Shown here piece by piece: positions 1-48,046 of a DNA stretch of 64,000 nucleotides. Each line of letters starts with the position of its first letter. Position 1 is the first letter of the stretch. The stretch is from Candidatus Aminicenantes bacterium (GTDB taxonomy: Bacteria > Acidobacteriota > Aminicenantia > JAMOAD01): positions 92 to 64,091 of the forward strand of contig JAMOUT010000075.1 in NCBI GenBank assembly GCA_027061995.1, written 5' to 3'. Below the pieces are notes generated by a model. The model worked only from the letters and a program-made list of their open reading frames with translations. It did no database searches and was not told the origin of the DNA. Both the position numbers and the translations under genes were made by a program.

Positions 1-72
1 TTTCTTCGATAATCCCCAATCTATTCATTTTGACAGGGTTTACAATAATATTTGCTCTGCTCTCAATAAAAT

Positions 73-124
73 TCTTTAACATTGAAAAAACTTAAAGAGA
101 TTGAAGTTAAAGCATATTCGGGGA
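73..124. repeat. Left copy of a ~52-bp imperfect direct repeat (ttaacattgaaaaaacttaaagagatNgaagtNaaagcatattcggg) flanking the TA cassette
   Basis: The same ~50 nt string with 3-4 mismatches recurs at 764-815. Seen directly in the sequence. Confidence 0.6.
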
Positions 125-185
125 TTATTAAAAATATTTTGTCTTATGATTTTTTTTATGCTATAATTTTTATAGGAGACAATAG

Positions 186-383
186 ATGAGAGTAATTATT
201 GATATTGAGGATAATAAAAAAGGGAAATCTTTTATTGAATTTATTAAAGAGCTTCCCTTTATAAAATTTAAGATTAAAGAGGATGGCAAAAGGGATAAAA
301 AAGGGGAATTTAGCGAATTATTCGGAATATGGAAAAACAGAGATATTACAAAGGAAAGTTTAAGAGAGGAAGCGTGGAGATAA
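186..383 (+). CDS. Putative antitoxin (VapB-like) of a type II TA pair
   Basis: A 65-aa charged ORF lies 3 nt upstream of a PIN-domain ORF, which is typical antitoxin-toxin operon geometry. There is no recognisable fold signature, so the call rests on position only. Confidence 0.45.
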   Translation: MRVIIDIEDNKKGKSFIEFIKELPFIKFKIKEDGKRDKKGEFSELFGIWKNRDITKESLREEAWR

Positions 384-386
384 TCA

Positions 387-758
387 ATGATTCTCTGCGA
401 TACTGATGTTATTATTGAGTATCTGAAAGGAAGCAAAAAGGCGAAAAGAGAACTTGAAAAAATAAAACTTAATAACATAACCCTTAGTAGTATAACTTTA
501 ATGGAAATTTATTTTGGAGCATTAAATAAAAAAGAGCTAAATAATATAAAAAGAGTTTTGGAAAATTTTAATATTTTAAAAGTTAACGAAGATATATCGG
601 ATCTGTCTATTGACTTAATTTTAAAGTATTCAAAAAGTCATGGTTTAAGGATTCCCGATTCATTAATAGGAGCTACGGCAATTTATTATGATGTCCCTCT
701 TTTTACATATAATACAAAAGATTTTCATTTTATTGAAAATTTAAGACTTTATAAATAA
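387..758 (+). CDS. vapC: PIN-domain ribonuclease toxin (VapC-like)
   Basis: N-terminal MILCDTDVIIEY carries the conserved Asp at position 5. It also has the PDSLIGATA and TYNTKDF acidic motifs characteristic of PIN/VapC. It is ~120 aa and tightly coupled to a small upstream ORF. Confidence 0.75.
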   Translation: MILCDTDVIIEYLKGSKKAKRELEKIKLNNITLSSITLMEIYFGALNKKELNNIKRVLENFNILKVNEDISDLSIDLILKYSKSHGLRIPDSLIGATAIYYDVPLFTYNTKDFHFIENLRLYK

Positions 759-763
759 TTTTT

Positions 764-815
764 AACATTGAAAAAACTTAAAGAGATAAAAGTCAAAGCA
801 TATTCGGGTTATAAA
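764..815. repeat. Right copy of the direct repeat flanking the TA cassette; overlaps the 5' end of ORF 768..1010
   Basis: Near-identical to 73-124. Confidence 0.6.
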
Positions 816-1010
816 GGAGATGAAAAACCTGTAAGTTTTAATTATCAAGGGGATGATTACAGTGTAAAAGAGATAATGGAATCCTGCAAACTATCTGAAA
901 AAAACAGCGCAATAATTTATAATGTTTTTAAAATCAAAACAACCGAAGGTAAAATTTTCAAACTTTATTATGATGATATATCCTGTAAATGGTTTTTGAA
1001 AACGGATTGA
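768..1010 (+). CDS. Hypothetical small protein (80 aa); 5' end duplicated at 73-124
   Basis: The ORF has a TTG start and no obvious RBS. Its first ~16 codons are duplicated upstream of the TA cassette, so it may be a disrupted or re-started gene. Confidence 0.3.
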   Translation: MKKLKEIKVKAYSGYKGDEKPVSFNYQGDDYSVKEIMESCKLSEKNSAIIYNVFKIKTTEGKIFKLYYDDISCKWFLKTD

Positions 1011-1013
1011 ACT

Positions 1014-2123
1014 CTATTTTAGTAAAGCTGTATATTCAAACCCTACCATAAAAGCATAACCTTTTTCCCCGTTTCTCCACGGTTCTTTGTATTCTCTTTC
1101 ATTTTCTTTGATTCCCGTTATTATCATGGAAAGATTTTTTGTCAGTGTTTTTCTGATTTTAAGAATAAATCTTTTTATATTTTGATCATGATAAATATTC
1201 CCTATTTTCTGCGGATAATACTCTCCGTAAGAGAGATTTATTATATTGCCCCTGTTTTCAAATTTAAAATTCAGATATCCCCCTCTTCCCTCTATCGGGG
1301 TTTTAAATTTATAAAAAATATTTCTGTAATAATAACTTTTATCCCAAAATATCTCATCTTCATTAAATTCCCGGTGAAACCCGTATTGATCATAGATAGC
1401 TTCTCCCGAAAGAGAAAAATGCCCGATTTTTAAAAGAAAATCAGCCCCGAGGTGGTTTTTGTATTCTTTTTGTTGCTCTGAGCCTATCCCATCATGAGCT
1501 TTTACGGAAACTCCGAGTTTAAAAAAATTAAAATCAAAACCGAATCTTGCTATTCCCGCTTTAAAAGAGTTTGTATCTCTGTTCTCTTCCCCATTGACAA
1601 TCGCAAGATCTATGGAAAATATAAACGGTTTCCAATGAAAAAAAACACCTGTTTCTCTTAATAAAATCGCTTCATCTCTTATAAAAGGGGAGCCGAATTT
1701 ATAATTATTTAAAAACAGAGGATAATTTATTCTGCCGAAGGGAGTTGGTTTTTTCCCGATTGATATTAACATATTTTTATTTTTATATCCTATTTCAATC
1801 TTTGATATCTCAAATGTCGGGATATTAAAATTTTCAATATAATTCTTTCTTTCACTGTCCATTAAAATATTTTTTCCGTAAGATTGATTTAAAAAAAATT
1901 CTGATTCTACGAAAAAGGAGTGACTTGAAATCTGTTTTTCTATATCTATTTTTATAACGGCTTCAACCCCGAAGGTCATCTCAAGCCCGCTCCAAAATAT
2001 CCGTTGGTCATTAACTAAATATCCCCTGAATACAGCGGAAATATCCATATCAGGTTTTTCGGAGGATAAAACCAAAGGTTGAATACAAAAAAACAGGATA
2101 AAAATAATAAGTATCTTTTTCAT
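1014..2123 (-). CDS. Secreted or outer-membrane hypothetical protein with N-terminal signal peptide
   Basis: MKKILIIFILFFCIQPLVLS looks like a signal peptide. The rest is rich in aromatic/glycine residues with alternating hydrophobic positions, consistent with a beta-rich OM protein. The product is not recognised. Confidence 0.45.
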   Translation of the reverse strand: MKKILIIFILFFCIQPLVLSSEKPDMDISAVFRGYLVNDQRIFWSGLEMTFGVEAVIKIDIEKQISSHSFFVESEFFLNQSYGKNILMDSERKNYIENFNIPTFEISKIEIGYKNKNMLISIGKKPTPFGRINYPLFLNNYKFGSPFIRDEAILLRETGVFFHWKPFIFSIDLAIVNGEENRDTNSFKAGIARFGFDFNFFKLGVSVKAHDGIGSEQQKEYKNHLGADFLLKIGHFSLSGEAIYDQYGFHREFNEDEIFWDKSYYYRNIFYKFKTPIEGRGGYLNFKFENRGNIINLSYGEYYPQKIGNIYHDQNIKRFILKIRKTLTKNLSMIITGIKENEREYKEPWRNGEKGYAFMVGFEYTALLK

Positions 2124-2252
2124 ATCGAAAAAATATTATAAAAAAAGATAATGGTTGTCAATATCAAGAGTTTAAAATATGTTGAAACTTATTGCTTCTT
2201 GACCAAAGCCCGATGTTAAACTATAATCAATTTACTATTAAAGGAGATTATT

Positions 2253-2720
2253 ATGGATAAAATCAATAGGATTATAGCTACCTTTTTTTACACGGGTTAT
2301 CTTCCGATAGCTCCCGGAACTTGGGCATCTTTGTTTACAACAATTATTCTGTTTTTTGTTCTCAAAACCCTGACACTTCCCATGTATCTGTTTGTTTTGG
2401 TATTTATTTTTATTATCGGAAGTGTGATATCCGATTATCTTTCAAAAAAATATAATGTTGAAGATCCGAGATGGATAGTTATTGACGAGGTCGTCGGGAT
2501 ATTGGTAACATTCCTTCCTTTCTATTATAAAGTTGTTTTTAATCCCAAGGCTCTGATAGTCGGGTTTTTCCTGTTCAGAATTTTTGATGTTATAAAACCT
2601 TTTCCTGTCAGCTGCGCCGATAAAAAAATCAAAAACGGATTCGGCATTATGTTTGACGATGTTCTTGCGGGAGTTTATGCGTCTATATTATTATTTTTGT
2701 TGAGAGGCTTTCTTGTATGA
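2253..2720 (+). CDS. pgpA: Phosphatidylglycerophosphatase A
   Basis: PgpA-family motifs are present: GTWASLF, IDEVVG and RIFDVIKPFP. The size is ~155 aa and an RBS (aaggag) precedes the ATG. Confidence 0.75.
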   Translation: MDKINRIIATFFYTGYLPIAPGTWASLFTTIILFFVLKTLTLPMYLFVLVFIFIIGSVISDYLSKKYNVEDPRWIVIDEVVGILVTFLPFYYKVVFNPKALIVGFFLFRIFDVIKPFPVSCADKKIKNGFGIMFDDVLAGVYASILLFLLRGFLV

Positions 2721-3958
2721 GAGCTGAAATCATAGCAATCGGCTCCGAACTTTTAACCCCGTATAAAACTGATACAAACTCATTGTATCTGACGGAAAAA
2801 CTTCTTGAAACCGGGATAAAAACAGATTATAAAACAATTGTCGGAGACAGTAGAGAAACTCTTTATAAAGCTGTAAAAGATGCTTCAAAAAGGGTTCAAC
2901 TAATAATTACGACAGGGGGATTAGGGCCTACGGAAGATGATATAACGAGAGAGGTTGTCGCTAATTTTCTTAAAAAAGAGTTAATTCTGCATGAAGATAT
3001 AGTTTCGGATATAAAAAAACATTTTTCATTCAGAAAACTCAAGATGCCTGAAATAAATATAAGGCAGGGTTTTGTGATTGACGGAGCCGAAATAATTAAA
3101 AACAGTGTAGGGACCGCCCCCGGGCAATGGTATGAAGATGAGAACATTAAAATTGCGATTCTTCCGGGTCCTCCTTCCGAGATGAAACCTATGGTTGAAA
3201 ATTTTCTGCTTAAAAAATTAAAAAAATATTCCTCTTTTCATTATAAAACAAGGAGCATGCGAATAGTAGGACTTACAGAATCCGCAGTTGAAGAAAAAAT
3301 AGAGGATATAATATCGGGATTAAAAAATCCGTGGGTTAATATACTCGCAATTCCCGGCCAGATAGAGATTAATATTATGGCACGGGGAAAAGAGGGCAAA
3401 GATGAAGCTCTTTTAAAAGGGGAAGAGGTTTTTAAAAAAGTTTACGATAGATTGAAAGAACATGTTTTTACACTTCAAAAGGATAAATTTGAAAAAGTTA
3501 TAGGAGAGATGCTTTTAAAATCAAAAAGGGATATCGCTGTTGCCGAAAGCTGCACGGGTGGTCTTCTTGCAAACAGAATAACGGATATATCGGGAAGTTC
3601 CGCTTATTTTGAAAGGGGTGTTGTTTCATATTCTAACAGAGCAAAGATAGAGATGTTAAAGGTAAAACAAGAGACAATCGAAAAGCATGGGGCTGTTTCA
3701 AAAGAGACCGCAAAAGAGATGGCGGAAGGGATAAGAAAACTTGCTGATACGCACTATGGAATCGGGATTACGGGGATAGCCGGACCTACCGGAGGAACTA
3801 TGGAAAAACCGGTGGGCCTTGTTTATATATCTCTTTCAACTCCCGAAAAAACCGAAGTTTTTCAATACAGATTCATAGGGAGAAGGGAAAAAATAAAATG
3901 GCAATCATCTCAACAAGCTCTTTATCATCTTTGGAAAGATTTGAAAGGGGATGAATAA
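2717..3958 (+). CDS. cinA: CinA-family protein (MoCF-binding N-domain plus C-terminal nicotinamide-nucleotide amidohydrolase domain)
   Basis: The N-terminus MRAEIIAIGSELLTPYKTDTN is typical of CinA. It has the C-terminal CinA/PncC domain and is ~410 aa. Confidence 0.85.
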   Translation: MRAEIIAIGSELLTPYKTDTNSLYLTEKLLETGIKTDYKTIVGDSRETLYKAVKDASKRVQLIITTGGLGPTEDDITREVVANFLKKELILHEDIVSDIKKHFSFRKLKMPEINIRQGFVIDGAEIIKNSVGTAPGQWYEDENIKIAILPGPPSEMKPMVENFLLKKLKKYSSFHYKTRSMRIVGLTESAVEEKIEDIISGLKNPWVNILAIPGQIEINIMARGKEGKDEALLKGEEVFKKVYDRLKEHVFTLQKDKFEKVIGEMLLKSKRDIAVAESCTGGLLANRITDISGSSAYFERGVVSYSNRAKIEMLKVKQETIEKHGAVSKETAKEMAEGIRKLADTHYGIGITGIAGPTGGTMEKPVGLVYISLSTPEKTEVFQYRFIGRREKIKWQSSQQALYHLWKDLKGDE

Positions 3959-4883
3959 TCGCTGTTTTCTCGGGCTTGGTTCTAATCTCGGGGATAAAAA
4001 AGAAAATCTCCGAAAAGCAAAAGAACTTTTAATACAAAAAAATATCAAAATAATTAATGAATCCACTATATATGAAACCAAACCAATGTATTATTCGGAG
4101 CAGGATAATTTTCTCAATCAGGTTATCGAGGTTAAAACAGATTATCAGCCCGATGAATTATTGGAAATAATATCCGAGATAGAAAAAAAATTAAAAAGGG
4201 TCAGAAAAATAAAATACGGTCCGAGAACAATTGATATCGATATCCTGTTCTACGGTGATAAGATAATAATGAGAGAAAATTTGATAATTCCTCACCATAG
4301 AATCATTGAGAGAGAATTTGTTCTTGAGCCCCTTTGTGAAATTGCCGGAGATTTTATCCATCCCGAACACAGAAAAACAATGTGCGAACTCAAGGAGGAA
4401 CTTATCCGAGAAAACAGGAAAACAAAATTTTTATGCGATGCAATGCTTGGTGATATTGCCGAATGGTTAAGATTAACGGGGTTTTTTGTTTTTTATAATC
4501 CTGATGCGGATGATAATGAATTGGTCAGGCTCTCCTCCGAAAAAGGGTATATACTTTTAACTCGTGATAAAGAATTGTCAAAAAGGAAAAATATAAATGC
4601 TTTATATATAGAATCAAAAGAATTCAAGGGAACAATCAGAGAAATTTTTAAAAAACTTAAACTTTCCATAGATGAAAAAGATATTTTTTCAAGATGCCCG
4701 ATATGCGGAGAAAAACTGATTGATATTGATAAAGATGAAGTCAAACTTTTTATTCCCATTAGAATTTATGAAGAGCATGATAAATTCAAAATGTGCAGAA
4801 AATGTGAGAAAATCTATTGGAAAGGGGAAAAATATAAAAATTTATACAATCAATATCTTGAAATAAAAGATATCTTAGAGTAA
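3951..4883 (+). CDS. folK: Fusion of 6-hydroxymethyl-7,8-dihydropterin pyrophosphokinase (HPPK, FolK) with a C-terminal Mut7-C/DUF82 PIN-like RNase domain and zinc ribbon
   Basis: The N-terminal half has HPPK motifs (GLGSNLGD, ETKPM, GPRTIDIDILFYGD, HPRxxEREFVLxPL). The C-terminal half (FLCDAMLGDIAEWLRLTGF...LLTRDKEL) plus CPICG...CRKCEK matches Mut7-C architecture. Confidence 0.7.
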   Translation: MNNRCFLGLGSNLGDKKENLRKAKELLIQKNIKIINESTIYETKPMYYSEQDNFLNQVIEVKTDYQPDELLEIISEIEKKLKRVRKIKYGPRTIDIDILFYGDKIIMRENLIIPHHRIIEREFVLEPLCEIAGDFIHPEHRKTMCELKEELIRENRKTKFLCDAMLGDIAEWLRLTGFFVFYNPDADDNELVRLSSEKGYILLTRDKELSKRKNINALYIESKEFKGTIREIFKKLKLSIDEKDIFSRCPICGEKLIDIDKDEVKLFIPIRIYEEHDKFKMCRKCEKIYWKGEKYKNLYNQYLEIKDILE

Positions 4884-32653: not shown

Positions 32654-33793
32654 TTATCTTCTCCTCTTCATTTCTTTACCTTTAAGATTAATTTCCGTAG
32701 AAGCAAGGACTTCATGAGTTTCAGCATTCCTGTAAACAACCTTAAATCCTCCGATTCCGGGGCCAAGCTTCATGCCTGTATTTATTGTTACAAATCTCTT
32801 ATTAGTTCTCATCCCTAATCTTCTTTTCGCAATAAATCTTCCCGTTTCTCCCTTTAATACAAGACCTCTTTTTGTAATTTTCCCGATTGTTTTAATAGGC
32901 TCTTCTCCTCTATACAAAACTATTTCTATTTCGGCTCCACCTTTCGCTAATCTTTCTCTGAAAACAGGATTTTCAAATCTTTTAAGTTTATTAATTTCCA
33001 ATCTTAAGCATTGAGGACAATAGGGACCGGGCTGCGGACCATCAGGACCAAAAGGACCCCAAGGACCCCAACCTATAATTATGCGAGCATTTCTGAGTTT
33101 TTCTATAATCCACGGATCAATATGGATACCGTTATCACTGCAGTTATCACTAATTGTAAAAACATCGCCATTGTCATAGACAGCATTATCAACGGTTTTT
33201 ACTCTTACTACATAAGAACCATTGGGAATAGTGTTAGGAATTGTCCATGAGAAAGAACCGTCATTGGCAGTCGGATTTACTATGATAGTTTGCAAAGTAG
33301 TCAAATCAGTCTTATATAGCGTAATCTTAACACTATCATTCATGCTACCGCTCTTTGTCCATCTGATTGTGTGAGAACTTCCTTTCTCTAAACAATCTCC
33401 ACTACGCGGATCGGTTACCGTAATCGTGCCACCCGTCGGAGCAGATGTTGCGATATTGAAAACATCACTATCATCATAAACCTGATTATCAATTGTCTTT
33501 ACCCTGACAATATACTGACCGTTAGGAATGGAATTAGGAATTGTCCATGAGAAGGAACCATCATTAGCGGTCGGCCTAACTATTATCATTTGTAATGTCG
33601 TATGATCGGGTTTATACAGCGTAATTTTAACATTATTGTCCATACTACCGCTCTTTGTCCATCTGATAGTATATGTGCTTCCCTTGTGCCATGTTGAGCC
33701 CGAGTGGGGATTTGTTACTGTTATGCTTTGTGCATAACTCATTGCAGTTATGAAAACCGCAATCAATAAAAACAATAAAACTTTTTTCTTCAT
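32654..33793 (-). CDS. Secreted modular protein, family member 1: signal peptide, 2x Kre9/KNH-like ~90-aa domains, variable Gly/Pro-rich C-terminus
   Basis: The start is set at ATG 33793 after GGAGG. The signal peptide is MKKKVLLFLLIAVFITAMSYAQS. The repeats read ITVTNPHSGSTWHKGSTYTIRWTKSGSMDNNVKITLYKPDHTTLQMIIVRPTANDGSFSWTIPNSIPNGQYIVRVKT. Confidence 0.8.
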   Translation of the reverse strand: MKKKVLLFLLIAVFITAMSYAQSITVTNPHSGSTWHKGSTYTIRWTKSGSMDNNVKITLYKPDHTTLQMIIVRPTANDGSFSWTIPNSIPNGQYIVRVKTIDNQVYDDSDVFNIATSAPTGGTITVTDPRSGDCLEKGSSHTIRWTKSGSMNDSVKITLYKTDLTTLQTIIVNPTANDGSFSWTIPNTIPNGSYVVRVKTVDNAVYDNGDVFTISDNCSDNGIHIDPWIIEKLRNARIIIGWGPWGPFGPDGPQPGPYCPQCLRLEINKLKRFENPVFRERLAKGGAEIEIVLYRGEEPIKTIGKITKRGLVLKGETGRFIAKRRLGMRTNKRFVTINTGMKLGPGIGGFKVVYRNAETHEVLASTEINLKGKEMKRRR

Positions 33794-33828
33794 TTGAAAA
33801 CCTCCTTTAGTTTTTAATAAATAGTATA

Positions 33829-33845
33829 TGCATTTTTTGTGCCAT
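33829..33845 (-). promoter_or_regulatory. Sigma54-like -24/-12 element (minus strand reads TGGCACaaaaaaTGCA)
   Basis: The GG-N10-GC spacing is exact. It lies ~40 bp upstream of the start codon. The homologous element is conserved upstream of all family members. Confidence 0.45.
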
Positions 33846-33918
33846 AGCGCATTATTTAAGAAAACGGTTGATATCATTGCATTTTATTTTGTCCACCACT
33901 ATTCATCAAACAACCGAA

Positions 33919-33958
33919 CGACAGAATTGTCGGCCGGTTAGACAAAAATGTCGGCCGG
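33919..33958. promoter_or_regulatory. Tandem palindromic upstream sites (cGACAgaatTGTCggccgg / GACAaaaaTGTCggccgg), candidate enhancer/UAS
   Basis: A GACA-N4-TGTC dyad recurs upstream of every family member, 70-110 bp from the -24/-12 element. Confidence 0.45.
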
Positions 33959-34045
33959 TTTTAAAATTATTGACAAAAATGTTAATCTTCTCCGGAATTG
34001 TTTTCCCCTTTTGGCTATAATTATATTTGATTTCGCGTATTGATT

Positions 34046-34082
34046 TAAAAAAAAAGCCGCCTTTTCATCTGAAAAGGCGGCT
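34046..34082 (-). terminator. Rho-independent terminator of family member 2 (agccgccttttc-atct-gaaaaggcggct followed by a T-run on the minus strand)
   Basis: A 12-bp GC-rich stem is followed by a run of 9 T on the coding strand. Confidence 0.7.
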
Positions 34083-34103
34083 TATATATCTGATACGGTT
34101 TTT

Positions 34104-35621
34104 TTATTTCAGCATATCATTAATTGCTTTTCCACTTTTACTCATACTATTGTTATTCGGATTACAATCATCATTAGTTTTAAGATTATCAGCTCCTATA
34201 TCAGGGTCATATGTAAGATAAACTTTGAATGTGGGCGGAAACTCCCCTTCATTCGGAGAACTCGAATTCCAATCCATCTCATAGTTTATTGTGATAGTTT
34301 CTCCCGCTTTAAGATTCTGAAAATTTTTCGTTTTTAAGGGATGAGTAGGATCTCCCATATCCATAACTATCATCTGTTGGTTAGGGTGGCTTATGTAATC
34401 CGCATTGCCCACATTCTTAACTACCCCTGTAATTCTGACTTTCCCTCTGAATTGACTATACTTTCTTACTATACTAAATTTTATATCCACTACGGCAAGG
34501 TCAGGACACTTTTTAGTAAGCCTTGCATTTTGTAAAATCTTAGGGTTAATTGTAGTAATAAGTGAATTATTATAAACTCTTCCATGCTCCATACCTTTAA
34601 CTTTTAGTTCCTTTTCACCTATCGGGTTTTTACCGGAAAAAACCACCAATTTGTAACCGCGAGGATTCCTTCCCATCATTTCCTTTTGTTTAGGTGTTAA
34701 TCTTAAATCAAACATGCTCGGCATACTATTAAAAAAGACTCCTCCTCTTTTTACCATAGGTCTGAATACACCAAAATTATAAATGACCTCTCTTCCTTTC
34801 ATCAACTTTATAGTTACCGGCTGTTTAATGTTTGATTTCTCAAGAGCATTTTTAATACCACCGATTCCACGAATTCTGGGACCCGGTCCGTGCATGTAAA
34901 TAGCAAGTTCGGCAAGATTCAGGCTTGCACGAAAACGCCCGAAGTCAATAGAAGGAATTCCACTATCACAATTATTACTAATAGAAAAAATGTCACTATC
35001 ATCATATACGGTATTGTCAACTGTTTTTACTCTTACAACATAAGAACCTTCGGGAATAGAGTTCGGGACTACCCAAGTATAAGCACCATCATTGGCAGTC
35101 GGGTTTACTATGATAGTTTGTAAAGTAGTCAAATCAGTCTTATATAGCGTAATCTTAACACTATCATTCATACTACCGCTCTTTGTCCATGTGATCGTGT
35201 GAGAACTTCCTTTTTTCCAACAATCTCCACTATGCGGATCGGTTACCGTAATCGTGCCACCCGTCGGAGCAGGTGTTGCGATATTAAAAACAACACTATC
35301 ATCATAAACAGCATTGTCCATTGTCTTTACTCGGACAATATACTGGCCATCAGGAATGGAATTGGAAACCACCCACGAGAAAATGCCGTCATTAGCAGTC
35401 GGCCTAACTATTATCATTTGTAATGTCGTATGATCGGGTTTATACAGCGTAATTTTAACATTATTATCCATACTACCGCTCTTTGTCCAAGTGATATTAT
35501 AAGTGTTTCCCTTATACCATGTTGAACCCGAGTGGGGATTTGTAACGGTAATGCTTTGAGCATAACTAAAGGCAATCATAAAAACTGCAATTAAAAAAAT
35601 CATTAAAACTCTTTTCTTCAT
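34104..35621 (-). CDS. Secreted modular protein, family member 2: signal peptide, 2x Kre9/KNH-like domains, C-terminal CARDB-like domain
   Basis: MKKRVLMIFLIAVFMIAFSYAQS is followed by the same tandem domains. The C-terminal CPDLAVVDIKF...ITGVVKNVGNAD resembles CARDB. Confidence 0.8.
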   Translation of the reverse strand: MKKRVLMIFLIAVFMIAFSYAQSITVTNPHSGSTWYKGNTYNITWTKSGSMDNNVKITLYKPDHTTLQMIIVRPTANDGIFSWVVSNSIPDGQYIVRVKTMDNAVYDDSVVFNIATPAPTGGTITVTDPHSGDCWKKGSSHTITWTKSGSMNDSVKITLYKTDLTTLQTIIVNPTANDGAYTWVVPNSIPEGSYVVRVKTVDNTVYDDSDIFSISNNCDSGIPSIDFGRFRASLNLAELAIYMHGPGPRIRGIGGIKNALEKSNIKQPVTIKLMKGREVIYNFGVFRPMVKRGGVFFNSMPSMFDLRLTPKQKEMMGRNPRGYKLVVFSGKNPIGEKELKVKGMEHGRVYNNSLITTINPKILQNARLTKKCPDLAVVDIKFSIVRKYSQFRGKVRITGVVKNVGNADYISHPNQQMIVMDMGDPTHPLKTKNFQNLKAGETITINYEMDWNSSSPNEGEFPPTFKVYLTYDPDIGADNLKTNDDCNPNNNSMSKSGKAINDMLK

Positions 35622-35657
35622 TTGAAAACCTCCTATAGTTCCTTAATAAACAGTATA

Positions 35658-35674
35658 TACATTTTTTGTGCCAT
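35658..35674 (-). promoter_or_regulatory. Sigma54-like -24/-12 element (TGGCACaaaaaaTGTA)
   Basis: Paralogous to 33829-33845, with GT in place of GC at -12. Confidence 0.4.
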
Positions 35675-35750
35675 AGAGCATTATTTTAGAAAACGGTTGA
35701 TATCATTGCTTTTAATTTTGTTCTCCCTTATGCACTAAACGATGAATCGA

Positions 35751-35785
35751 CTAATATGTCGCCTAAACAGACAGAAATGTCAGTC
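35751..35785. promoter_or_regulatory. GACAgaaaTGTC dyad plus half-site, candidate UAS
   Basis: Same position relative to the promoter as in member 1. Confidence 0.4.
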
Positions 35786-35841
35786 AATTTTAAAATTATT
35801 TTCCCCTTTTGGATATGATTATGTTGCTTTAATATTGATTT

Positions 35842-35874
35842 AAAAAAGCCGCCTTTTCGTTGGAAAAGGCGGCT
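35842..35874 (-). terminator. Rho-independent terminator of family member 3 (agccgccttttc-gttg-gaaaaggcggct)
   Basis: The stem is nearly identical to the terminator at 34055-34082, so it was duplicated along with the gene. Confidence 0.7.
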
Positions 35875-35896
35875 CTATCTCTGAGACAGTTTTTAT

Positions 35897-37651
35897 TTAT
35901 TCAATAAAATCAAATACTGTGATATAGGTGCCTTCAACATTATGAGCCTTGATTGCTTTACTTGAAATAACATGGTTTTTATCTTTTATAACAAGCGCAT
36001 ACTTTATTAGCTTTCCGCACGGAGCTCTCTTAACCTTAACAACATATTTGTTGCTATACGGATAATAACAGGTAGAATTCATCATCTTTTTGTTTATGGG
36101 AATCTCTTTCAATCTTTCCCATGTTTTTGTTTTTTCTCTGTAATATTTAATATATGCTTCTTCGGCTCCGACAAAATCATACAGGAATGCAACCGTTCCT
36201 TCATTATGGTAAGTCACTCCTGTTTCAACTTTTTTTGTTTGATCGACGATTTTAAAACTTTTGATATAAGGTTTGCGTTTAACCCAAAGAATTGAATAAG
36301 AATTATTGTCTTTTCCTATTGATTCCATTTCGATTGTTATATCTCTGTATTTATCATGAATTTGAAAGGAACCTATGCTTGAGTCTTTTTTACTATCATA
36401 TGTTACCCAATTCTTTTTAGTTTTAGTATCATATATTTTACCCCTTACAGCATCAACAAAATTATAATAGATTAAAGGTGGAATTTGTCCGCAATTCACC
36501 CAAACAGTTTTATTTTTGGTATCTTTAAAAAAAAGTTTTGATTTTATATTTATATCTCCTCGCTTAACCTTTAAGTTTAACAAAGCCTTATTGTTATCTT
36601 CGTTCGCTTCGTCAATCAATCTGCTTGAATCAACCATAACCTGAAGAGTATAATAACCGGCTTTAGTATATTTAATATTGTTTAACCTGATAACAATTTG
36701 CTCATTCCTTTTTAAACCATATTTCACAAATCCTTTTGATATGCTATTGTCATTATTATAAGCATAGGTTTTAAAAAATTTATCTGCCGGAATATCATTC
36801 CCGATATTCTTTATTGTTACTTTAATGGAAAAAGGTCTGTTTGAATACAAGGTGGAAGGCTCTGTTTCAACTTTTATAATTTTAAGATCAGGTTTGTATT
36901 CCATGAATTTTTGCAATGGCTCCGCGAGAGTATTATTATATGTTTTTAATGTTGCAGTTTCCGGTTGATTATAATTGTCTTTGATAAAATCTGTCAAAGA
37001 ACTTCTTTTAATTGTAAAAACAGCACTATCATCATATACCTTGTTATTCATCGTTTTCACTCGGATAATATACTGTCCATCAGGTATGGAATTAGGAATT
37101 GTCCATGAGAAGGAACCATCATTGACGGTCGGCCTAACTATTATCATTTGTAATGTCGTATGATCGGGTTTATACAGCGTAATTTTAACATTATTGTCCA
37201 TGCTACCGCTCTTTGTCCATCTGATTGTGTGAGAACTTCCTTTCTCTAAACAATCTCCACTATGCGGATCGGTTACCGTAATCGTGCCACCCGTCGGAGC
37301 AGGTGTTGCGATATTAAAAACAACACTATCATCATAAACCTGATTATCAATTGTCTTTACCCTGACAATATACTGACCGTTAGGAATGGAATTAGGAATT
37401 GTCCATGAGAAGGAACCATCATTAGCGGTCGGCCTAACTATTATCATTTGTAATGTCGTATGATCGGGTTTATACAGCGTAATTTTAACATTATTGTCCA
37501 TACTACCGCTCTTTGTCCATCCGATAGTATATGTGCTTCCCTTGTGCCATGTCGAGCCCGAGTGGGGATTTGTAACGGTAATGCTTTGGGCATAACTAAA
37601 GGCAATCATAAAAACTGCAATTAACAATAACATTAATACTTTTCTTTTCAC
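35897..37651 (-). CDS. Secreted modular protein, family member 3: signal peptide, 2x Kre9/KNH-like domains, long variable C-terminus with CARDB-like segment
   Basis: MKRKVLMLLLIAVFMIAFSYAQS is the signal peptide (GTG start). KPDLKIIKVETEPSTLYSNRPFSIKVTIKNIGN is CARDB-like. The protein is 584 aa. Confidence 0.8.
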   Translation of the reverse strand: MKRKVLMLLLIAVFMIAFSYAQSITVTNPHSGSTWHKGSTYTIGWTKSGSMDNNVKITLYKPDHTTLQMIIVRPTANDGSFSWTIPNSIPNGQYIVRVKTIDNQVYDDSVVFNIATPAPTGGTITVTDPHSGDCLEKGSSHTIRWTKSGSMDNNVKITLYKPDHTTLQMIIVRPTVNDGSFSWTIPNSIPDGQYIIRVKTMNNKVYDDSAVFTIKRSSLTDFIKDNYNQPETATLKTYNNTLAEPLQKFMEYKPDLKIIKVETEPSTLYSNRPFSIKVTIKNIGNDIPADKFFKTYAYNNDNSISKGFVKYGLKRNEQIVIRLNNIKYTKAGYYTLQVMVDSSRLIDEANEDNNKALLNLKVKRGDINIKSKLFFKDTKNKTVWVNCGQIPPLIYYNFVDAVRGKIYDTKTKKNWVTYDSKKDSSIGSFQIHDKYRDITIEMESIGKDNNSYSILWVKRKPYIKSFKIVDQTKKVETGVTYHNEGTVAFLYDFVGAEEAYIKYYREKTKTWERLKEIPINKKMMNSTCYYPYSNKYVVKVKRAPCGKLIKYALVIKDKNHVISSKAIKAHNVEGTYITVFDFIE

Positions 37652-37687
37652 TCTTAATTCCTCCTTTAATTTTAATAAAAAAAATAT

Positions 37688-37703
37688 TCAATTTTTATAC
37701 CAA
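37688..37703 (-). promoter_or_regulatory. Sigma54-like element (TGGTATaaaaaTTGA)
   Basis: Conserved position. The region 37652-37710 is identical to 42305-42362. Confidence 0.35.
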
Positions 37704-37775
37704 AACATATTCTTCGGAAAAATATTTAACCGCCTCGTTCTTTATAAAAAAACAAAATACTACCTTAAATAGATT

Positions 37776-37810
37776 GACGACAATATTGTCTTATTAAAAA
37801 CAATTTTGTC
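37776..37810. promoter_or_regulatory. GACgACAATATTGTC palindrome plus ACAATTTTGTC, candidate UAS
   Basis: A perfect 12-bp dyad GACAATATTGTC is present. Confidence 0.45.
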
Positions 37811-38042
37811 TATAATCTATACAAAGGTGTTGGCATTTGTTTTGTTCCTTATGATTTTCCCCTTTTTATTTTATCTTTGATACATCCGTCTCGGTTTTTT
37901 AATATATTAAAAAGAATCATAATAAGAATATTATATTTACCCGTCTCATTCTCTTATGAATTTAATATTTCACAAAGAGTAAATAAAATATGACAAAAAA
38001 TTCTCTGAAACATCATTATTATTTTTATCTTACCCCGCCAGT

Positions 38043-38078
38043 AAAAAAAAAGAGGGCAAACTTCGTTTGCCCTCTTTT
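38043..38078. terminator. Bidirectional rho-independent terminator (aaagagggcaaac-ttcg-tttgccctcttt)
   Basis: A 13-bp stem is flanked by A-run and T-run, downstream of family member 4. Confidence 0.7.
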
Positions 38079-38106
38079 TATATCTTCGTTTTGTTATTAT
38101 TTCCTA

Positions 38107-39423
38107 CTATCTCTCCAGAACCTCTATCTCCATATAAACATTATCATAATAATCAACACACTTGTTATTATTATGAGAAAAGCTCTCATCCACTCCGGTG
38201 AAAATTATTCCGTGATTGAAAGAGGGATTTCTAACCCATTTTCTAACCAAAGACGATAAATTTCCCTGTGGATTTTCAATAAGCTCAATAGAAGCATTAA
38301 ACAGGTTACTAAAAGGTTTTGTGACCCTGTAAATTCTTAAGCCACAATAGTTCCCCTTATAATGATGGTAGTGAAGGGTAGCTTTTGTTATCAAACCTTT
38401 ACCCTTTAGCTTACTTACATCGAAAAAAGCATGGGCACGGTATGCTTCTCCATAATAATTATATGTTATCGAATCTTCTTTATAAGTATTTGCATAACCA
38501 ACCCTTAATTTTCCGTTACCAGGATCATCATATTTAAACCCCAGCACAAAAGGCGCTCCACCAATTATTGATGATTTTTTCTTATTTTTCCAATGATAAG
38601 TGTTCGTTGTTTTCGCATAAATTTTGTATTTATGAGTTTTTATAGAAGCAAAAATATGAAATGGCTTACTATATCCTACAGCACCATCCTTTTTCCTGAC
38701 TATTTTAATCCTATGATCTCCTATATATTTTATAACATTAGCAAACAGTCTCTCAGGAATCTTCCAATCATAAGTCTTAAGTTTTGATTTATCCCCCCAA
38801 CGAGAAAGGCTAATAAAACCTGCTCTAATAACCTTTTCGACCTCTTTTTTATCAAAACTCACAAGATAAATAGCAAATTCTTCTCCAGATTTTCCTTCCC
38901 ACTTAATCGTCATTGTGGAACCTTCCTTCCACTTGCCTCCGGTAGGACTAATAATGTTAATGGTCTTTAATTTGCCGTTTTTACCGGGATTCACCGCATC
39001 AAGAATGGCGCCAATGTTTTTACTATTATCAGGCTTAATTATGCCCGCATATTTTCCAACATTGGATAAAGAGTCAATTTTAAACACTTCTCCATCATCA
39101 TACACAGAATTATCCATTGTCTTAACTCTTACTAAGTATTTACCGCTCGGGATACTATTCGGGATTGTCCATAAAAATGACCCATTGTTGGGAGTAGGTT
39201 TTGCGATAATATAAATAAGAGACTTATGATCAGGTTTATAAAGAGTGATTTTAACCTGTGAATCCATGTTTCCACTCTTACTCCAAACAATCTTATAGGT
39301 ATTGCCTTTAATCCAGGTATTTTGGGAATTAGGCTTTTTGACAGTTATTGTCCCTGAACCTGAATAAGCAAATGCAACAAAAAATAAAATGACCACAACA
39401 AAAATTAAAAGTTTTTTTCTCAT
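38107..39423 (-). CDS. Secreted modular protein, family member 4: signal peptide, 1 divergent Kre9/KNH-like domain, different C-terminal beta-rich region
   Basis: The start is set at ATG 39423 after GAGGAGG. The signal peptide is MRKKLLIFVVVILFFVAFAYSGSG. The domain reads ITVKKPNSQNTWIKGNTYKIVWSKSGNMDSQVKITLYKPDHKSLIYIIAKPTPNNGSFLWTIPNSIPSGKYLVRVKT. Confidence 0.75.
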   Translation of the reverse strand: MRKKLLIFVVVILFFVAFAYSGSGTITVKKPNSQNTWIKGNTYKIVWSKSGNMDSQVKITLYKPDHKSLIYIIAKPTPNNGSFLWTIPNSIPSGKYLVRVKTMDNSVYDDGEVFKIDSLSNVGKYAGIIKPDNSKNIGAILDAVNPGKNGKLKTINIISPTGGKWKEGSTMTIKWEGKSGEEFAIYLVSFDKKEVEKVIRAGFISLSRWGDKSKLKTYDWKIPERLFANVIKYIGDHRIKIVRKKDGAVGYSKPFHIFASIKTHKYKIYAKTTNTYHWKNKKKSSIIGGAPFVLGFKYDDPGNGKLRVGYANTYKEDSITYNYYGEAYRAHAFFDVSKLKGKGLITKATLHYHHYKGNYCGLRIYRVTKPFSNLFNASIELIENPQGNLSSLVRKWVRNPSFNHGIIFTGVDESFSHNNNKCVDYYDNVYMEIEVLER

Positions 39424-39455
39424 TATAACCTCCTCTAAAAAAGTAAAAAAGTTTA

Positions 39456-39471
39456 TCAATTTTCATGCCAA
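39456..39471 (-). promoter_or_regulatory. Sigma54-like element (TGGCATgaaaaTTGA)
   Basis: Matches TGGCAYG-N4-TTGM. The gene start lies ~35 bp downstream. Confidence 0.4.
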
Positions 39472-39532
39472 AGTTTAAAACCATTGAATACACCAATATT
39501 TAACAAATAAAAAAAGATTTCTAAAAAATTTT

Positions 39533-39570
39533 GCCGACAATATTGTATGATAAAAAACATTTTTGTCGGG
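39533..39570. promoter_or_regulatory. GCCGACAATATTGTA and ACATTTTTGTCGGG dyads, candidate UAS
   Basis: Same motif class as the other members. Confidence 0.4.
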
Positions 39571-40858
39571 TTTCACTTGTTGAAAACTAAATGATAAATG
39601 TTATTTCGCCTGTTTTTTACACACGCCACCCAGCACTTTCTTTAAACAACCATAATAATTATTCTGCCGCTTCCATATAACTCTTAACCAAAGTTTCATA
39701 AAGATTTCTTTATCAGGAACCAACAGTTAAAACACTTTCATAATTACAATAAAATAATATTAAAACTATGACCATATCTTTCTCTTCAACTGTTTTTTTT
39801 CTTTTTGAATGTATTCAAAAGTTTTTTAGTTTACCTGTCATCTTTATTTTTTACCTTCCCTTTTTTATTTATTAAAAATTGCATAACTTCAAACTTTCAA
39901 CTTTGTTTTTGCACGATTGTTTCTTTCTTTATCTTCCCTAACAGTATGATAAGGGGCTATCTTATCTCAAGCCAAACATCTTTTAAGATATAAATCCACT
40001 CTTTTCTTTCTACAGCGTTAAATTTCCCGAGGGCAATTGATAGGATATTGAGGTATTTTATTCCTTTGGTTTATATAAAGAATTTATGTTTAGTAGGTTC
40101 CAAGACTTTTTCCCTATATTTTTACGCCACCTCATACTTTTTCTTTACTAATTATTAACTTTCGGAGTCATTAACCATACAATGAGATCATGTAGAGTTT
40201 CTCTTGATACAGTCATATCTTTACGCTTGCATTCATCTCCCCGTTTTTTGACCACCTTATGGTATATGAATGAACACTCTTCATACCAAGTATTACACAA
40301 TATCGAAGCTGTTACTATAATACTCTGCAAATGCCCCAGAGAGGATAAACATCATAATAAATAAACATTATAATTTTTTTTCTATCATTTTAGACATACA
40401 AAATTCATGAAATATAGGTTTAATCTTTATGCCATACTATTTATTATTATATTAATGCTTTAAATATTATTTAATAACTATATTTAAACTATTTTTAATA
40501 ATTAATTTGCAAGGTTAGCTAAAAAAAGACAAAAAAATCTATAAATAATTATATTTATACATTGCTGTCCTATAAGATTCAGAGTGTCCAAAAGAGAGTA
40601 ATATCAAGAGTTAACGAAAAAGATAAGTAAGATTTCTTTTTTTACTCTATTAAAAAAGTTAATCAATTTTCATATAATTAGTCCTTTCTAATTATTAGTC
40701 GAGTGTTCTCCTTATGAAAAAATTAAAATTTTGTAATGACGGCGGTTAAACATCTCGGATATACAATTTTCTTTTGAAAATATAGCAGAATCAACAATCG
40801 TTTTTTTGTCCAAAAAAATCCTTTCATTTTTCCTTTCTTTTATATTATTAAAATTTTT

Positions 40859-42304
40859 TTAATTAGAGCATTTTTTCTTTCCTGTATTATGAACAGGTGC
40901 TCCCACACCTACAACTTTTATATAAGTTTTAACTAAATTGTTCCCAATAGAACGCTCCGCACAATCACTGTTAATCGGGCAAACTACATAAACAGCAACT
41001 TTTCTTACCCCCGATAAAAACCATCTGTTCTCTACAGTATAGGATCTATGACCTCCCGGAGAGATTTTTGGTAAACTAAAAATTTTGGGAGGGTCCGGAG
41101 GGAGAGTGGGATCATGCACTATATTCTTTATCAAAATCTGTAAATTACATCTACTGCAGGAATTTTGATCTCCGATGTTTTTTACATCAACATTTAATAT
41201 TACTTTTTTACCGGGAGCCACCTCTTTTTTATCATCCACACAAACAATAAGATCAGGAAGACCTTTTGTAAAAATTGTCTTTATAATTTTATTATTATCA
41301 TACCTCTTTTCTCGAACTCCTCTGCTCTCATTAACAGTATAAGTAAAAATGTATCTACCCTTCTTCTTAAAATAAAAATCAGCTTTCCAATTAACACTTC
41401 CACCTCGAGAAATATTAGAAAAGATATGTTTTATCACTTTTGTATAATTTTCAGGTCCATTAACAACAAGTTTTGTTTCAACATTATTCACACCCTTTAA
41501 ACCCATATTCCCCACTTTAACTTTAAACTCAGTTTTATTAACAGTTCCTCCGACAGGTGCAAGAGAGGCCTCCCGAATATAAAGATCGGGTAGAGATATA
41601 ATTTCTGTAGCCGGGTTGTTCCCAATGATAATATTGTCAAGAAGATTATCAATATAAAAAAGTTTGCTCTCTGTTGAAATTCCCCCTCCTATAGTTTTTA
41701 TTTTAATTAAATATTTTCCATTATCCAAAACTGACGGAATCCTCCACATATAAAAATTTTCCCCGAGATTATTTTCACAAGATGAGACAACATCCATAAC
41801 AAAGGATACGCCATGTCCAGCTTGCTTATAAAGCTTAATTTTCACCTGTGAAGACATATCCCCTTCCCTTTTCCATCTTATTTTATAAGTTCTGTTCTTT
41901 CTTAATTTTTCTCCACTTAAAGGGAAAATCATGGTTAGCTTAGGTTGAATAACCGATTCAGAGATTGTAAAATTATCGGAATCATCATAAACCTGATTAT
42001 CAATTGTCTTTACCCTGACAATATACTGACCGTTAGGAATGGAATTAGGAATTGTCCATGAGAAGGAACCATCATTAGCGGTCGGCCTAACTATTATCAT
42101 TTGTAATGTCGTATGATCGGGTTTATACAGCGTAATTTTAACATTATTGTCCATACTACCGCTCTTTGTCCATCCGATAGTATATGTGCTTCCCTTGTGC
42201 CATGTCGAGCCCGAGTGGGGATTTGTAACGGTAATGCTTTGGGCATAACTAAAGGCAATCATAAAAACTGCAATTAACAATAACATTAATACTTTTCTTT
42301 TCAC
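40859..42304 (-). CDS. Secreted modular protein, family member 5: signal peptide, 1 canonical plus 1 divergent Kre9/KNH-like domain, 2 CARDB-like domains, Cys-rich C-terminus
   Basis: The 5' ~350 nt are identical to member 3. LPDLYIREASLAPVGG...KVKVGNMG and LPDLIVCVDDKKEVAPGKKVILNVDVKNIGD are CARDB-like. Confidence 0.8.
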   Translation of the reverse strand: MKRKVLMLLLIAVFMIAFSYAQSITVTNPHSGSTWHKGSTYTIGWTKSGSMDNNVKITLYKPDHTTLQMIIVRPTANDGSFSWTIPNSIPNGQYIVRVKTIDNQVYDDSDNFTISESVIQPKLTMIFPLSGEKLRKNRTYKIRWKREGDMSSQVKIKLYKQAGHGVSFVMDVVSSCENNLGENFYMWRIPSVLDNGKYLIKIKTIGGGISTESKLFYIDNLLDNIIIGNNPATEIISLPDLYIREASLAPVGGTVNKTEFKVKVGNMGLKGVNNVETKLVVNGPENYTKVIKHIFSNISRGGSVNWKADFYFKKKGRYIFTYTVNESRGVREKRYDNNKIIKTIFTKGLPDLIVCVDDKKEVAPGKKVILNVDVKNIGDQNSCSRCNLQILIKNIVHDPTLPPDPPKIFSLPKISPGGHRSYTVENRWFLSGVRKVAVYVVCPINSDCAERSIGNNLVKTYIKVVGVGAPVHNTGKKKCSN

Positions 42305-42339
42305 TCTTAATTCCTCCTTTAATTTTAATAAAAAAAATA

Positions 42340-42355
42340 TTCAATTTTTATGCCA
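42340..42355 (-). promoter_or_regulatory. Sigma54-like element (TGGCATaaaaaTTGA)
   Basis: Identical context to member 3. Confidence 0.4.
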
Positions 42356-42430
42356 AAATGTTTTATTTGTTAAAAATATCATAAAATATTAAATAACATT
42401 AAAAACAATTTTTTTGGTAACAAGTAAAAT

Positions 42431-42448
42431 ACAACAATTTTGTCGATT
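42431..42448. promoter_or_regulatory. ACAACAATTTTGTCG dyad, candidate UAS
   Basis: Same motif class. Confidence 0.35.
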
Positions 42449-42612
42449 CAAATACAATTACAATAAGTGGCCTTCATGTAGAACAATCACGGTTTTCAAC
42501 CAAAATATCTTTTTGTTAAAATTAATATAAGTATTTAGTAATAGAAAAGCGTTCATTGCTAAAATTATAATATAAAATAAAAGATAAAAACATCCCTGAA
42601 TAACAAGTTTAT

Positions 42613-43869
42613 CTATTTCAATTTGAACACATGGATAATGGGTTTATCCTTATCAACATAAGGTTCCGCAATATAAAGATATCCCCTATCTCTATCAAAA
42701 GCAACAGCTCCCAAATGATCTTTTTGCTGATTGGAATTTATATGAAAAAGATATTTATCTATGTTCAAACTTGTGTATGGCTGAGGTTCATAAGGTTTAG
42801 ACCTTCCTTCTATGACCTTTTTAAAATCATCGGGATCATAAAACAGGATAATGCCGTCAAGATAGGTTGACCACCAACCTCTATTATCACATTCAAGACA
42901 GGGTCCATCCTGATTCCCGTACCAGCACTCACCTCTCCCCTTTGTTCCAACAAAAACAACGGCAGCTTTATCTCCCTTGGTCAACCATACGGCTCCCTGC
43001 CATTCATCCGAATTATGATAATTTTTCATCTTGTGTTGAGTTTGATCAAGATCCTCTGTTGAAGTATATTTTAAAAGAGTTTTAAAATTGAGTTTTGTCC
43101 CGTTTGAGGGGGGATTACCCTGTTTCCAGGGGGCGACGGCAAAGAGAGAAGGTCCTTGTCCCGACCACCCTCCGTCTCTGAATCTTCCTGTGGCAAGCTG
43201 ATAACCATCTATATATTCATCAGCCCAATTTTTCGGAATTTCAAACATATAATCATTAGTGCAATATTCATGATGAGGTGTATCAATATACCAATTACCC
43301 GCTTTTTTTGGATTTGATAAATCAAGTTCACACCGGCCGTGAGTTAGATCGGAAGGTTCCTGATAATGTTGTCCGATACAGAAATAGAGTTTTGCCGAAT
43401 TTTGATTTTCCTGCTTGGGAAGATATGTAATGCCCACTCTCGGAATCTCATAATTTGAGATATTAAGGATATCCTTGAATTTCTGTATTGTTTTTGCTCT
43501 CGGTAATTCGGAAAGAACCTTATTTTTTGAAATAACGGGTTTTGGAATACTTATTTCCGATATTCTATATTCCCAAGCATGTCCTGTTCCATAAAGGGAA
43601 CCCGGGTATCCGTCATTTTCTCCGTTTTTATCCCCTTCGGGACAATAAGTAAGAGCAAATCCTCCCCATTCCCAACTGTTAACTATCTCTCCTGTTCCAT
43701 CAGGCAATCTGAATGCTCCCATATACTCCAAATCGGAAGGTTGTATCAGTTGAGTGGGGATAGGGATGTTACTATTATTCGTATCTTCATCATTACCATT
43801 TTCAGTAGCTTTATTGCAATTGAACGCTAATAAAATTAAAAACAAAAATAATATAAAATATTTTTTCAT
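42613..43869 (-). CDS. Secreted hypothetical protein (signal peptide; unrelated to the family) embedded in the array
   Basis: MKKYFILFLFLILLAFNCNK has a signal peptide with a non-canonical lipobox. No Kre9-like domain is present. It starts 13 bp after the upstream terminator. Confidence 0.5.
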   Translation of the reverse strand: MKKYFILFLFLILLAFNCNKATENGNDEDTNNSNIPIPTQLIQPSDLEYMGAFRLPDGTGEIVNSWEWGGFALTYCPEGDKNGENDGYPGSLYGTGHAWEYRISEISIPKPVISKNKVLSELPRAKTIQKFKDILNISNYEIPRVGITYLPKQENQNSAKLYFCIGQHYQEPSDLTHGRCELDLSNPKKAGNWYIDTPHHEYCTNDYMFEIPKNWADEYIDGYQLATGRFRDGGWSGQGPSLFAVAPWKQGNPPSNGTKLNFKTLLKYTSTEDLDQTQHKMKNYHNSDEWQGAVWLTKGDKAAVVFVGTKGRGECWYGNQDGPCLECDNRGWWSTYLDGIILFYDPDDFKKVIEGRSKPYEPQPYTSLNIDKYLFHINSNQQKDHLGAVAFDRDRGYLYIAEPYVDKDKPIIHVFKLK

Positions 43870-43881
43870 TTTAAATAACCC

Positions 43882-43910
43882 AAAGCGGGAGAGTTTTACT
43901 CTCCCGCTTT
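43882..43910 (-). terminator. Rho-independent terminator of family member 6 (aaagcgggagag-tttt-actctcccgcttt)
   Basis: A 12-bp GC-rich stem is followed by U-rich sequence on the minus strand. Confidence 0.6.
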
Positions 43911-43928
43911 ATTTATTATATACAGATA

Positions 43929-48014: not shown

Positions 48015-48046
48015 GTAAGCAAATTGATTAACAAAAAACCATGTTT

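Follow-up and report, generated by a model that had tools for sequence, protein, structure and literature searches.

Near the start of a 64,000-nt stretch of a Candidatus Aminicenantes contig (hereafter the window, by which we mean the whole stretch analysed), a toxin–antitoxin (TA) gene pair of vapBC type lies between two copies of a direct repeat, at the point where an ABC-2 permease gene meets a small gene downstream of it. We think it likely, from comparison with related contigs, that this pair arrived as a cassette in a single insertion that duplicated its target; that it was then inherited vertically while its flanking repeats were homogenised; and that it was cleanly lost in a sister lineage.

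The repeat copies, both on the forward strand, are 48 nt long, start 686 nt apart and are identical at 45 of 48 positions, with mismatches at positions 102, 103 and 108; read in the frame of the downstream 80-aa gene, these mismatches amount to two synonymous changes and one E-to-K replacement. A looser ungapped extension covers 55 nt (68–122 and 754–808, 89% identity), and the longest perfect stretch between the copies is now 27 nt. The 26-nt core of the repeat, TTAACATTGAAAAAACTTAAAGAGAT, occurs exactly twice in the 64 kb with up to three mismatches allowed, and was matched in none of 100 dinucleotide shuffles (chance expectation 0); no further repeat bracketing genes in this manner was found elsewhere in the window. 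The initial annotation had called a direct repeat around the TA pair at 73–124 and 764–815: the repeat is real, its position a few bases off (Table 1), and the second copy does begin the downstream open reading frame (ORF), supplying 14 codons of it rather than the 16 claimed.

What the repeat duplicates is two gene ends. Copy 1 carries the last six codons and stop of the permease gene, and copy 2 spans the TTG start and first 14 codons of the 80-aa gene, such that each copy holds one functional gene end and the relic of the other. To the right of copy 1, positions 124–140 resemble a decayed continuation of a longer repeat, and the left edge of copy 2 has diverged; refining the earlier reading, we would put the original target duplication at ~70 nt. 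RNA folds of four versions of the repeat gave no significant structure (z between −0.5 and +0.4), and a 9-bp stem around the start codon that we had spotted by eye was dropped when the fold program gave it no support. Positions 1–2300 matched no Rfam family.

A single-copy allele exists in close relatives. Contigs L002 (ENA ERZ27262658 k141_111008) and L013 (JGI Ga0256835_1000487), whose flanks are 93–98% identical to the window, are shorter by exactly 686 bp: the cassette and one of the two repeat copies are missing, and the permease stop overlaps the TTG of the 80-aa gene by 14 nt; this is the empty site for which the initial annotation had advised looking in related genomes. One metagenome assembly yielded both L002, of 1460 bp, and L001, an independent 2146-bp contig with the same sequence as the window, and the difference between them is again exactly 686 bp. 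These two contigs have their first 141 and last ~140 bases in common, with 85 differences between (~94% identity), and filled and empty alleles are therefore found together in one sample. The 29.6-kb contig L013 is a second independent assembly with the single-copy allele, while the two-copy structure is present in the window contig, in L001 and in four contigs of L003 type from different samples. A more distant outgroup, L016/L017 (permease 77% identical at the amino acid level), likewise has a single copy, a 14-nt stop/start overlap and no cassette, so the overlap of the permease and 80-aa genes appears to be the native state.

The insertion of the cassette appears to be old. Four contigs from four samples (L003–L006), representing a lineage ~80–85% identical, carry it at the same site as the window, and their PIN-domain protein, P0004, is the closest relative of the window toxin at 87% identity. 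Synteny is the same throughout: ABC ATPase, two permeases, antitoxin, toxin, small gene, a 371-aa gene on the opposite strand, PgpA, CinA and HPPK/Mut7-C; the window and L003–L006 also have the toxin-side junction, ...CTTTATAAA[C/T]AA..., in common. Between the window and L003, nucleotide identity is 84–85% for the cassette genes and 77–85% for the flanking genes, and synonymous divergence (dS) is 0.69–0.75 and 0.83–1.24, respectively. L002, at 93–98% identity to the window and 77–84% to L003, is far closer to the former, and the topology therefore reads as ((window, empty), L003). Because the junction is shared and the cassette has diverged about as much as its flanks, we favour a single old insertion before the window and L003 lineages split; it follows that the empty allele of L002 and L013 is most likely a secondary, repeat-mediated deletion and not a pristine target.

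The repeats have not diverged in step with the lineages that carry them. In L003–L006 the two copies are identical over 70 of 70 positions; at ten sites the two window copies share one base and the two L003 copies another; and at position 86 (772 in copy 2) both window copies have a derived base relative to L002, L003 and L017. With a dS of ~0.7–0.9 between lineages, many differences would be expected between copies that evolved independently, above all in the relic halves, which do not code; from this we infer that the repeats evolved in concert and were homogenised again and again. Either gene conversion or unequal exchange with subsequent collapse could have done so, and the second of these has been shown experimentally for restriction–modification units flanked by long repeats according to work cited in PMC2853133. 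The initial annotation had reasoned that the same arrangement with diverged repeats in related genomes would speak for an ancient internal duplication; the arrangement does recur, in L003–L006, with repeats that have stayed identical. It had also offered insertion with target duplication and a deletion-prone repeat pair as alternatives, and both seem to hold, one after the other, as an old insertion followed by recombination between its repeats: a repeat pair that recombines would account for the clean deletion as well as for copies that stay alike.

We therefore envisage the following course of events. The cassette would have inserted once, in an ancestor of the window's Candidatus Aminicenantes lineage, at the 14-nt overlap between the ABC-2 permease gene and the small gene that follows it. 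Insertion would have duplicated ~70 nt of target, copy 1 preserving the 3′ end of the permease gene and copy 2 the 5′ end of the 80-aa gene, after which the cassette may have been passed on vertically under purifying selection. Its repeat copies would have been homogenised repeatedly, gene conversion or cycles of unequal exchange and collapse being the likely routes, and recombination between them would have removed the cassette precisely in the sister lineage found in the same sample.

Candidate mechanisms for the insertion step itself are a template switch in the course of replication and the illegitimate joining of a piece of an integron cassette array. Several points weigh against the proposed history. 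The comparison comprises three lineages and one outgroup, and every sequence in it comes from a metagenome assembly. That gene conversion could persist across so long a divergence, between such short repeats, is deduced from the pattern and not observed; the cassette dS is slightly below that of the flanks, leaving some room for a transfer soon after the split; and a second duplication-flanked cassette of the same family, on contig L093 (below), has no clean empty site, its relatives L112–L117 carrying a cation-efflux gene there. By event count, moreover, one gain plus one loss (two) ties with two independent gains (two). The empty site of L002 and L013 might accordingly be ancestral, the window and L003 lineages having gained the cassette separately, by a site-directed process or by lateral transfer between relatives, each with a duplication of its own target. 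Separate duplications would explain, with no need for gene conversion, both the likeness of copies within a genome and the ten differences between lineages, and also why the repeats measure 48–55 nt in the window and 70 nt in L003; the TA family is mobile elsewhere, an identical 711-bp integron cassette being found in different contexts. We nevertheless consider separate gains unlikely: the two lineages have the same toxin-side junction and the same left repeat edge, the cassette has diverged like its flanks, which with two donors would call for donors that happened to have diverged as the hosts did, and the sequence to the right of window copy 1 looks like a decayed longer repeat. Position 86, derived in both window copies and not in L002, would in any case require homogenisation after the window and L002 had split.

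The mobile relatives bear on a further possibility. A relative of the toxin, P0015 (66% identical), is encoded within a 711-bp unit that recurs with 100% identity in different contexts (L098–L103), is bounded by GTTAG core sites and ends in a ~60-nt imperfect palindrome, TTTCTAAC...GTTAG; such a palindrome also follows neighbouring cassettes. An attC site is an imperfect palindrome, RYYYAAC ... GTTRRRY, at the 3′ end of a cassette, and we read the 711-bp unit as an integron-type gene cassette with its attC site. It stands among TA-rich arrays of integron type (L098 177–234, 2241–2951 and 3608–3665; also L094–L097 and L099–L103), its neighbours being TA pairs of ParE-like, other PIN and MazE-like kinds; no integrase was seen in the array stretches examined (L094–L103). 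A profile built from five attC sites found 21 sites in L094–L103 and none in the window or L001–L017; the same search detected no attC array in the window, which was not scanned for integrase genes. An attC-like or hairpin structure in the window repeat, which we had entertained, was rejected on the flat fold z-scores and the empty profile search.

Given such relatives, the 686–693-bp unit could be a miniature integrative element, with the repeats as attL and attR for a recombinase acting in trans, whether an integron integrase or another tyrosine recombinase. Repeated excision and re-integration would keep the repeats identical and yield empty sites, filled and empty alleles do occur together in one sample, and related cassettes (PIN proteins 63–66% identical) are bona fide attC-bounded integron cassettes. 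Furthermore, TTTTTAAC, directly after the window toxin stop, matches the start of attC (TTTCTAAC) at 7/8 positions and the target (TCTTTAAC) also at 7/8; with low confidence, we suggest that the window junction may have formed within this short imperfect homology. Even so, we regard a miniature element as very unlikely. The insert carries no recombinase, the profile search returned nothing attC-like at this locus, the repeats have no significant secondary structure, and integron recombination does not make duplications of 48–118 nt. Between the window and L093, the insert ends lie differently relative to the cassette genes, and the cassettes point in opposite directions with respect to the host operon. 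The flanks of the filled and empty alleles are ~6% apart, so there is no ongoing switching within a single clone. As for chance similarity or an assembly artefact, which the AT-richness of the region (32% G+C) and the commonness of short AT-rich repeats might invite, it is already refuted by the shuffles and by the recurrence of both the two-copy and the one-copy structure in independent assemblies.

Contig L093 (NCBI GCA_054008655.1, JBPNCT010000052.1) appears to be a second, independent case of a duplication-flanked cassette. At 2464–3537, a pair from the same TA family (its PIN protein 65% identical) is enclosed by direct repeats of 118 nt that agree at 104 of 118 positions. In each repeat, the final ~18 codons of an ABC-2 permease gene run through TGATG into the opening ~20 codons of a pseudouridine synthase gene, the permease relying on one copy and the pseudouridine synthase on the other. 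The cassette is antisense to the host operon; its boundaries lie 228 nt ahead of the antitoxin and 29 nt behind the toxin, and these differences from the window seem to argue against an element with defined ends. Both duplication-flanked cases of the TA family thus sit at the 3′ end of an ABC-2 permease gene. The ABC-2 permease relatives of the L093 genome include named Thermodesulfobacterium and Caldimicrobium proteins.

Bracketing repeats as a general mark of the TA family were rejected, as they occur in two (window/L003 and L093) of about nine contexts screened, the others being L007, L094–096, L097, L098, L099–103, L104–108 and L109–111. L007 has no more than an 18-nt AT-rich match, which is weak and could be produced under the null distribution. 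Its cassette (PIN 74% identical) is the closest out-of-locus relative of the window cassette and adjoins genes with PDDEXK-nuclease and UvrD-helicase domains, which we take to be AddAB-like; directly downstream of it are two tandem units of ~51 nt, 76% identical (1018–1114).

The inserted segment has a G+C content of 25%, as against 33% for the 4 kb next to it and 32% for the window overall, and has kept this low value despite a long residence, as judged from the divergence between lineages. Its ORFs are just two, the antitoxin-like gene and the PIN toxin gene, as the initial annotation had stated; neither is a recombinase or mobility gene, and no terminal inverted repeats were found at the insert ends. 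Transposons and insertion sequences are recognised by terminal inverted repeats, a transposase and a short (2–14 bp) target duplication, and the insert, with no inverted ends, no further ORF and a duplication of 48–70 nt, does not resemble them.

We would assign the cassette, from its gene content and domain matches, to vapBC-type type II TA systems. The toxin matches the solved VapC structure 7by2 (E=3.9e-14) and NCBIfam VapC models only below their cut-offs, and the PIN acidic residues D5, D7, E40, D91 and D112 are all present. At a threshold of E<1e-10 there are 136 homologues, bacterial and archaeal; relatives carried by plasmids reach no more than 50% identity and are annotated VapC, and viral contigs scanned with the PIN alignment gave no relatives. 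The 65-aa product of the upstream gene has a weak VapB-antitoxin match (PF02697, E=0.0045, below the Pfam cut-off) and no match in NCBIfam or the Protein Data Bank. An antitoxin-like partner accompanies the toxin in every related locus (identity 78% in L003 and 59% in L007), and in the window its gene ends 3 nt before the toxin ATG. The ratio of non-synonymous to synonymous substitution rates (dN/dS) is 0.09 for the toxin and 0.15 for the antitoxin-like gene; both are under purifying selection. Low dN/dS, intact acidic residues and the 7by2 match lend indirect support to the pair being a working one. The promoter-like site upstream scores 10/12, among the best in 1–2300, and is followed by AGGAG at 174–178, ahead of the antitoxin gene; its TGCTATAAT motif is kept in L003–L007. 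No terminator-like site was found on the + strand in 1–1010.

Table 1 Features of the cassette locus and its flanks, in window coordinates
Feature	Position	Strand	Remarks
Second ABC-2 permease gene of ABC transporter operon, 3′ end	1..95	+	stop TAA 93–95
Direct repeat copy 1	75..122	+	functional permease 3′ end and relic of first 14 codons of 80-aa gene
Relic ORF, 35 codons	82..189	+	duplicated TTG start; ends ATGA overlapping antitoxin ATG
Unique inserted segment	124..760	+	637 bp; promoter-like site, antitoxin gene and toxin gene, nothing else
Promoter-like site (putative)	139..167	+	TTGTCT, 17 nt, TATAAT; TG before second hexamer
Antitoxin-like gene	186..383	+	65 aa; upstream partner of PIN gene
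VapC-type PIN-domain toxin gene	387..758	+	123 aa; PF01850 E=1e-16
Direct repeat copy 2	761..808	+	permease 3′-end relic and functional start/first 14 codons of 80-aa gene
80-aa gene	768..1010	+	original downstream partner of permease gene

The ends of the two flanking genes bear on how these may be translated around the cassette. The permease C-terminus reads ...LLSIKFFNIEKT before the stop; L001 carries the permease ORF 108 nt further upstream, and the orthologous 364-aa permease (L003–L006, L013, L017) matches PF12698/PF01061. The 80-aa protein has weak similarity to DUF6504 (PF20114, E=1.4e-4, below the cut-off). Its gene has orthologues in L002, L013, L003 and L017 and in 189 related metagenome loci, with a dN/dS of 0.2–0.27; in a large protein collection the protein has a single other cluster, P0002, 91% identical and encoded on L002. 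Reading the sequence directly, we found no Shine–Dalgarno-like sequence before TTG 82 or TTG 768, in agreement with the remark in the initial annotation that the downstream ORF lacks a good ribosome-binding site. In cassette-free relatives this TTG lies 14 nt inside the permease gene, and the small gene is therefore probably translationally coupled to the permease. In the window it starts 9 nt after the toxin stop, so that it is probably coupled to toxin translation, and the promoter-like site of the cassette probably serves it too.

Copy 1 has left a relic ORF, whose start overlaps the permease stop by 14 nt. It is open up to the antitoxin start in all three sequence variants; its equivalent ends in TAATG on the antitoxin start in L004–L006 and 10 nt short of that start in L003. 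Such an end at the antitoxin start arises by chance, for a single instance, in ~18% of shuffles. Purely as a hypothesis, the relic ORF might act as a translational bridge that leads ribosomes from the permease gene on across the cassette.

Insertion with long target duplication is reportedly known from restriction–modification gene complexes since the work of Nobusato and colleagues in 2000. It has been described for restriction–modification systems in detail (Furuta, Abe & Kobayashi 2010, PMC2853133; review PMC3874152), with the criteria that both genes lie in the insert, that mobility genes are absent, that repeats exceed 30 bp and that a relative has the empty site (PMC2853133); Furuta et al. 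also noted that such repeats often span a start or stop codon, sparing the target gene (PMC2853133). In the window both genes lie inside the insert (186–383 and 387–758 within 124–760), which, at 637 bp with two ORFs, is below the 20-kb limit of the definition and holds no mobility gene; the direct repeats exceed 30 bp (48 nt at 45/48 in the window, 70/70 in L003–L006); and L002, L013 and the outgroup L017 each have an empty site whose single copy aligns with both repeats. As cargo, the window has a PIN toxin with its antitoxin and not a restriction–modification system. By analogy, the window locus appears to be the same kind of rearrangement with a different cargo. The two have in common an addiction-type gene pair, the lack of a linked mobility gene, variable repeats of more than 30 bp that are single-copy in a related genome, and intact neighbouring genes; the window differs in that its cargo encodes an RNase toxin and not a DNA-cleaving enzyme, and in that its insertion appears old, with concerted repeats and a secondary precise loss. 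Since VapC is an RNase, the double-strand-break explanation favoured for restriction systems cannot apply. Our full-text literature search found no TA pair described as an insertion with long target duplication.

The nearest report is of a ParE/ParD-like module in Microcystis aeruginosa PCC 7806, a type II TA pair likewise placed between long direct repeats, there identical and 152 bp long (PMC7935541). Those repeats are non-coding and contain inverted repeats, and no empty site or target duplication was shown (PMC7935541), whereas the window repeats are duplicated ends of flanking genes for which a single-copy allele exists. Among integron TA cassettes, the 711-bp one is of the same vapBC family and of comparable size, with a −10 region, TGCTAWAAT, similar to that of the window; the window cassette, however, lacks attC, GTTRRRY boundaries and an array, and integron recombination does not duplicate tens of target bases. 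Site-specific integrative elements, with attL and attR at, for example, the 3′ ends of tRNA genes, resemble the locus in that their repeats restore a gene and excision leaves one copy; unlike them, the window insert is 637 bp long, has no integrase and has ends that are not conserved between the window and L093.

To our knowledge, chromosomal TA pairs are called mobile, most of them have no mobility gene, and their movement is poorly understood. The window locus offers a fully resolved example, with filled, empty and outgroup states. As its toxin cuts RNA and not DNA, the duplication step must come from host replication or recombination and not from the cargo, and insertion into a translationally coupled gene pair would be survivable because the duplication rebuilds both gene ends. 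The locus further suggests that short flanking repeats can stay identical over ~0.7–0.9 synonymous substitutions per site, and that such repeats permit scar-free loss of a cassette. A broader proposal, which we put forward as speculation and think rather unlikely to hold in full, is that type II TA cassettes circulating in integrons colonise chromosomal sites by a recurrent process that needs no cargo nuclease and makes long duplications at overlapping-gene junctions, the repeats being kept identical as a reversible device for excision and amplification by which carriage could be switched within a population. If this were true, restriction enzymes would have no special claim to insertion with long target duplication, by which addiction modules in general could enter chromosomes.

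Further observations concern the surroundings of the locus. The minus strand at 1014–2123 encodes a 369-aa protein with a signal-peptide-like N-terminus and no Pfam match, which has 78% amino acid identity to its counterpart in L003 and ~51% to relatives in other Aminicenantes genomes. In those genomes the homologue adjoins genes that, from their sequence, we take to be hypC/hypF (hydrogenase maturation), a different context that is uninformative on the insertion site. Window 1946–4013 has 94.9% identity to a 2.07-kb contig from Candidatus Aminicenantes bacterium PIR-30. HPPK and Mut7-C domains are joined in one 310-aa ORF (window 3951–4883, L003 8565–9506, L005 7416–8356); in L005 both the HPPK/Mut7-C gene and that for the 371-aa protein are broken into a pair of ORFs, which indicates frameshifts or assembly errors.

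Farther along the window, the minus strand at 32654–45353 carries an array of at least six paralogous genes of 407–584 aa, each with one or two Kre9/KNH-like Ig-like domains and some also with CARDB; these paralogues produce 300-nt repeat units in 7–9 copies. A 33-nt element with the palindrome-like ACGACAATATTGTC occurs four times beside paralogous Ig-like domain genes (37777–37809, 39534–39566, 45482–45514 and 47984–48016) and might be a shared operator or terminator.

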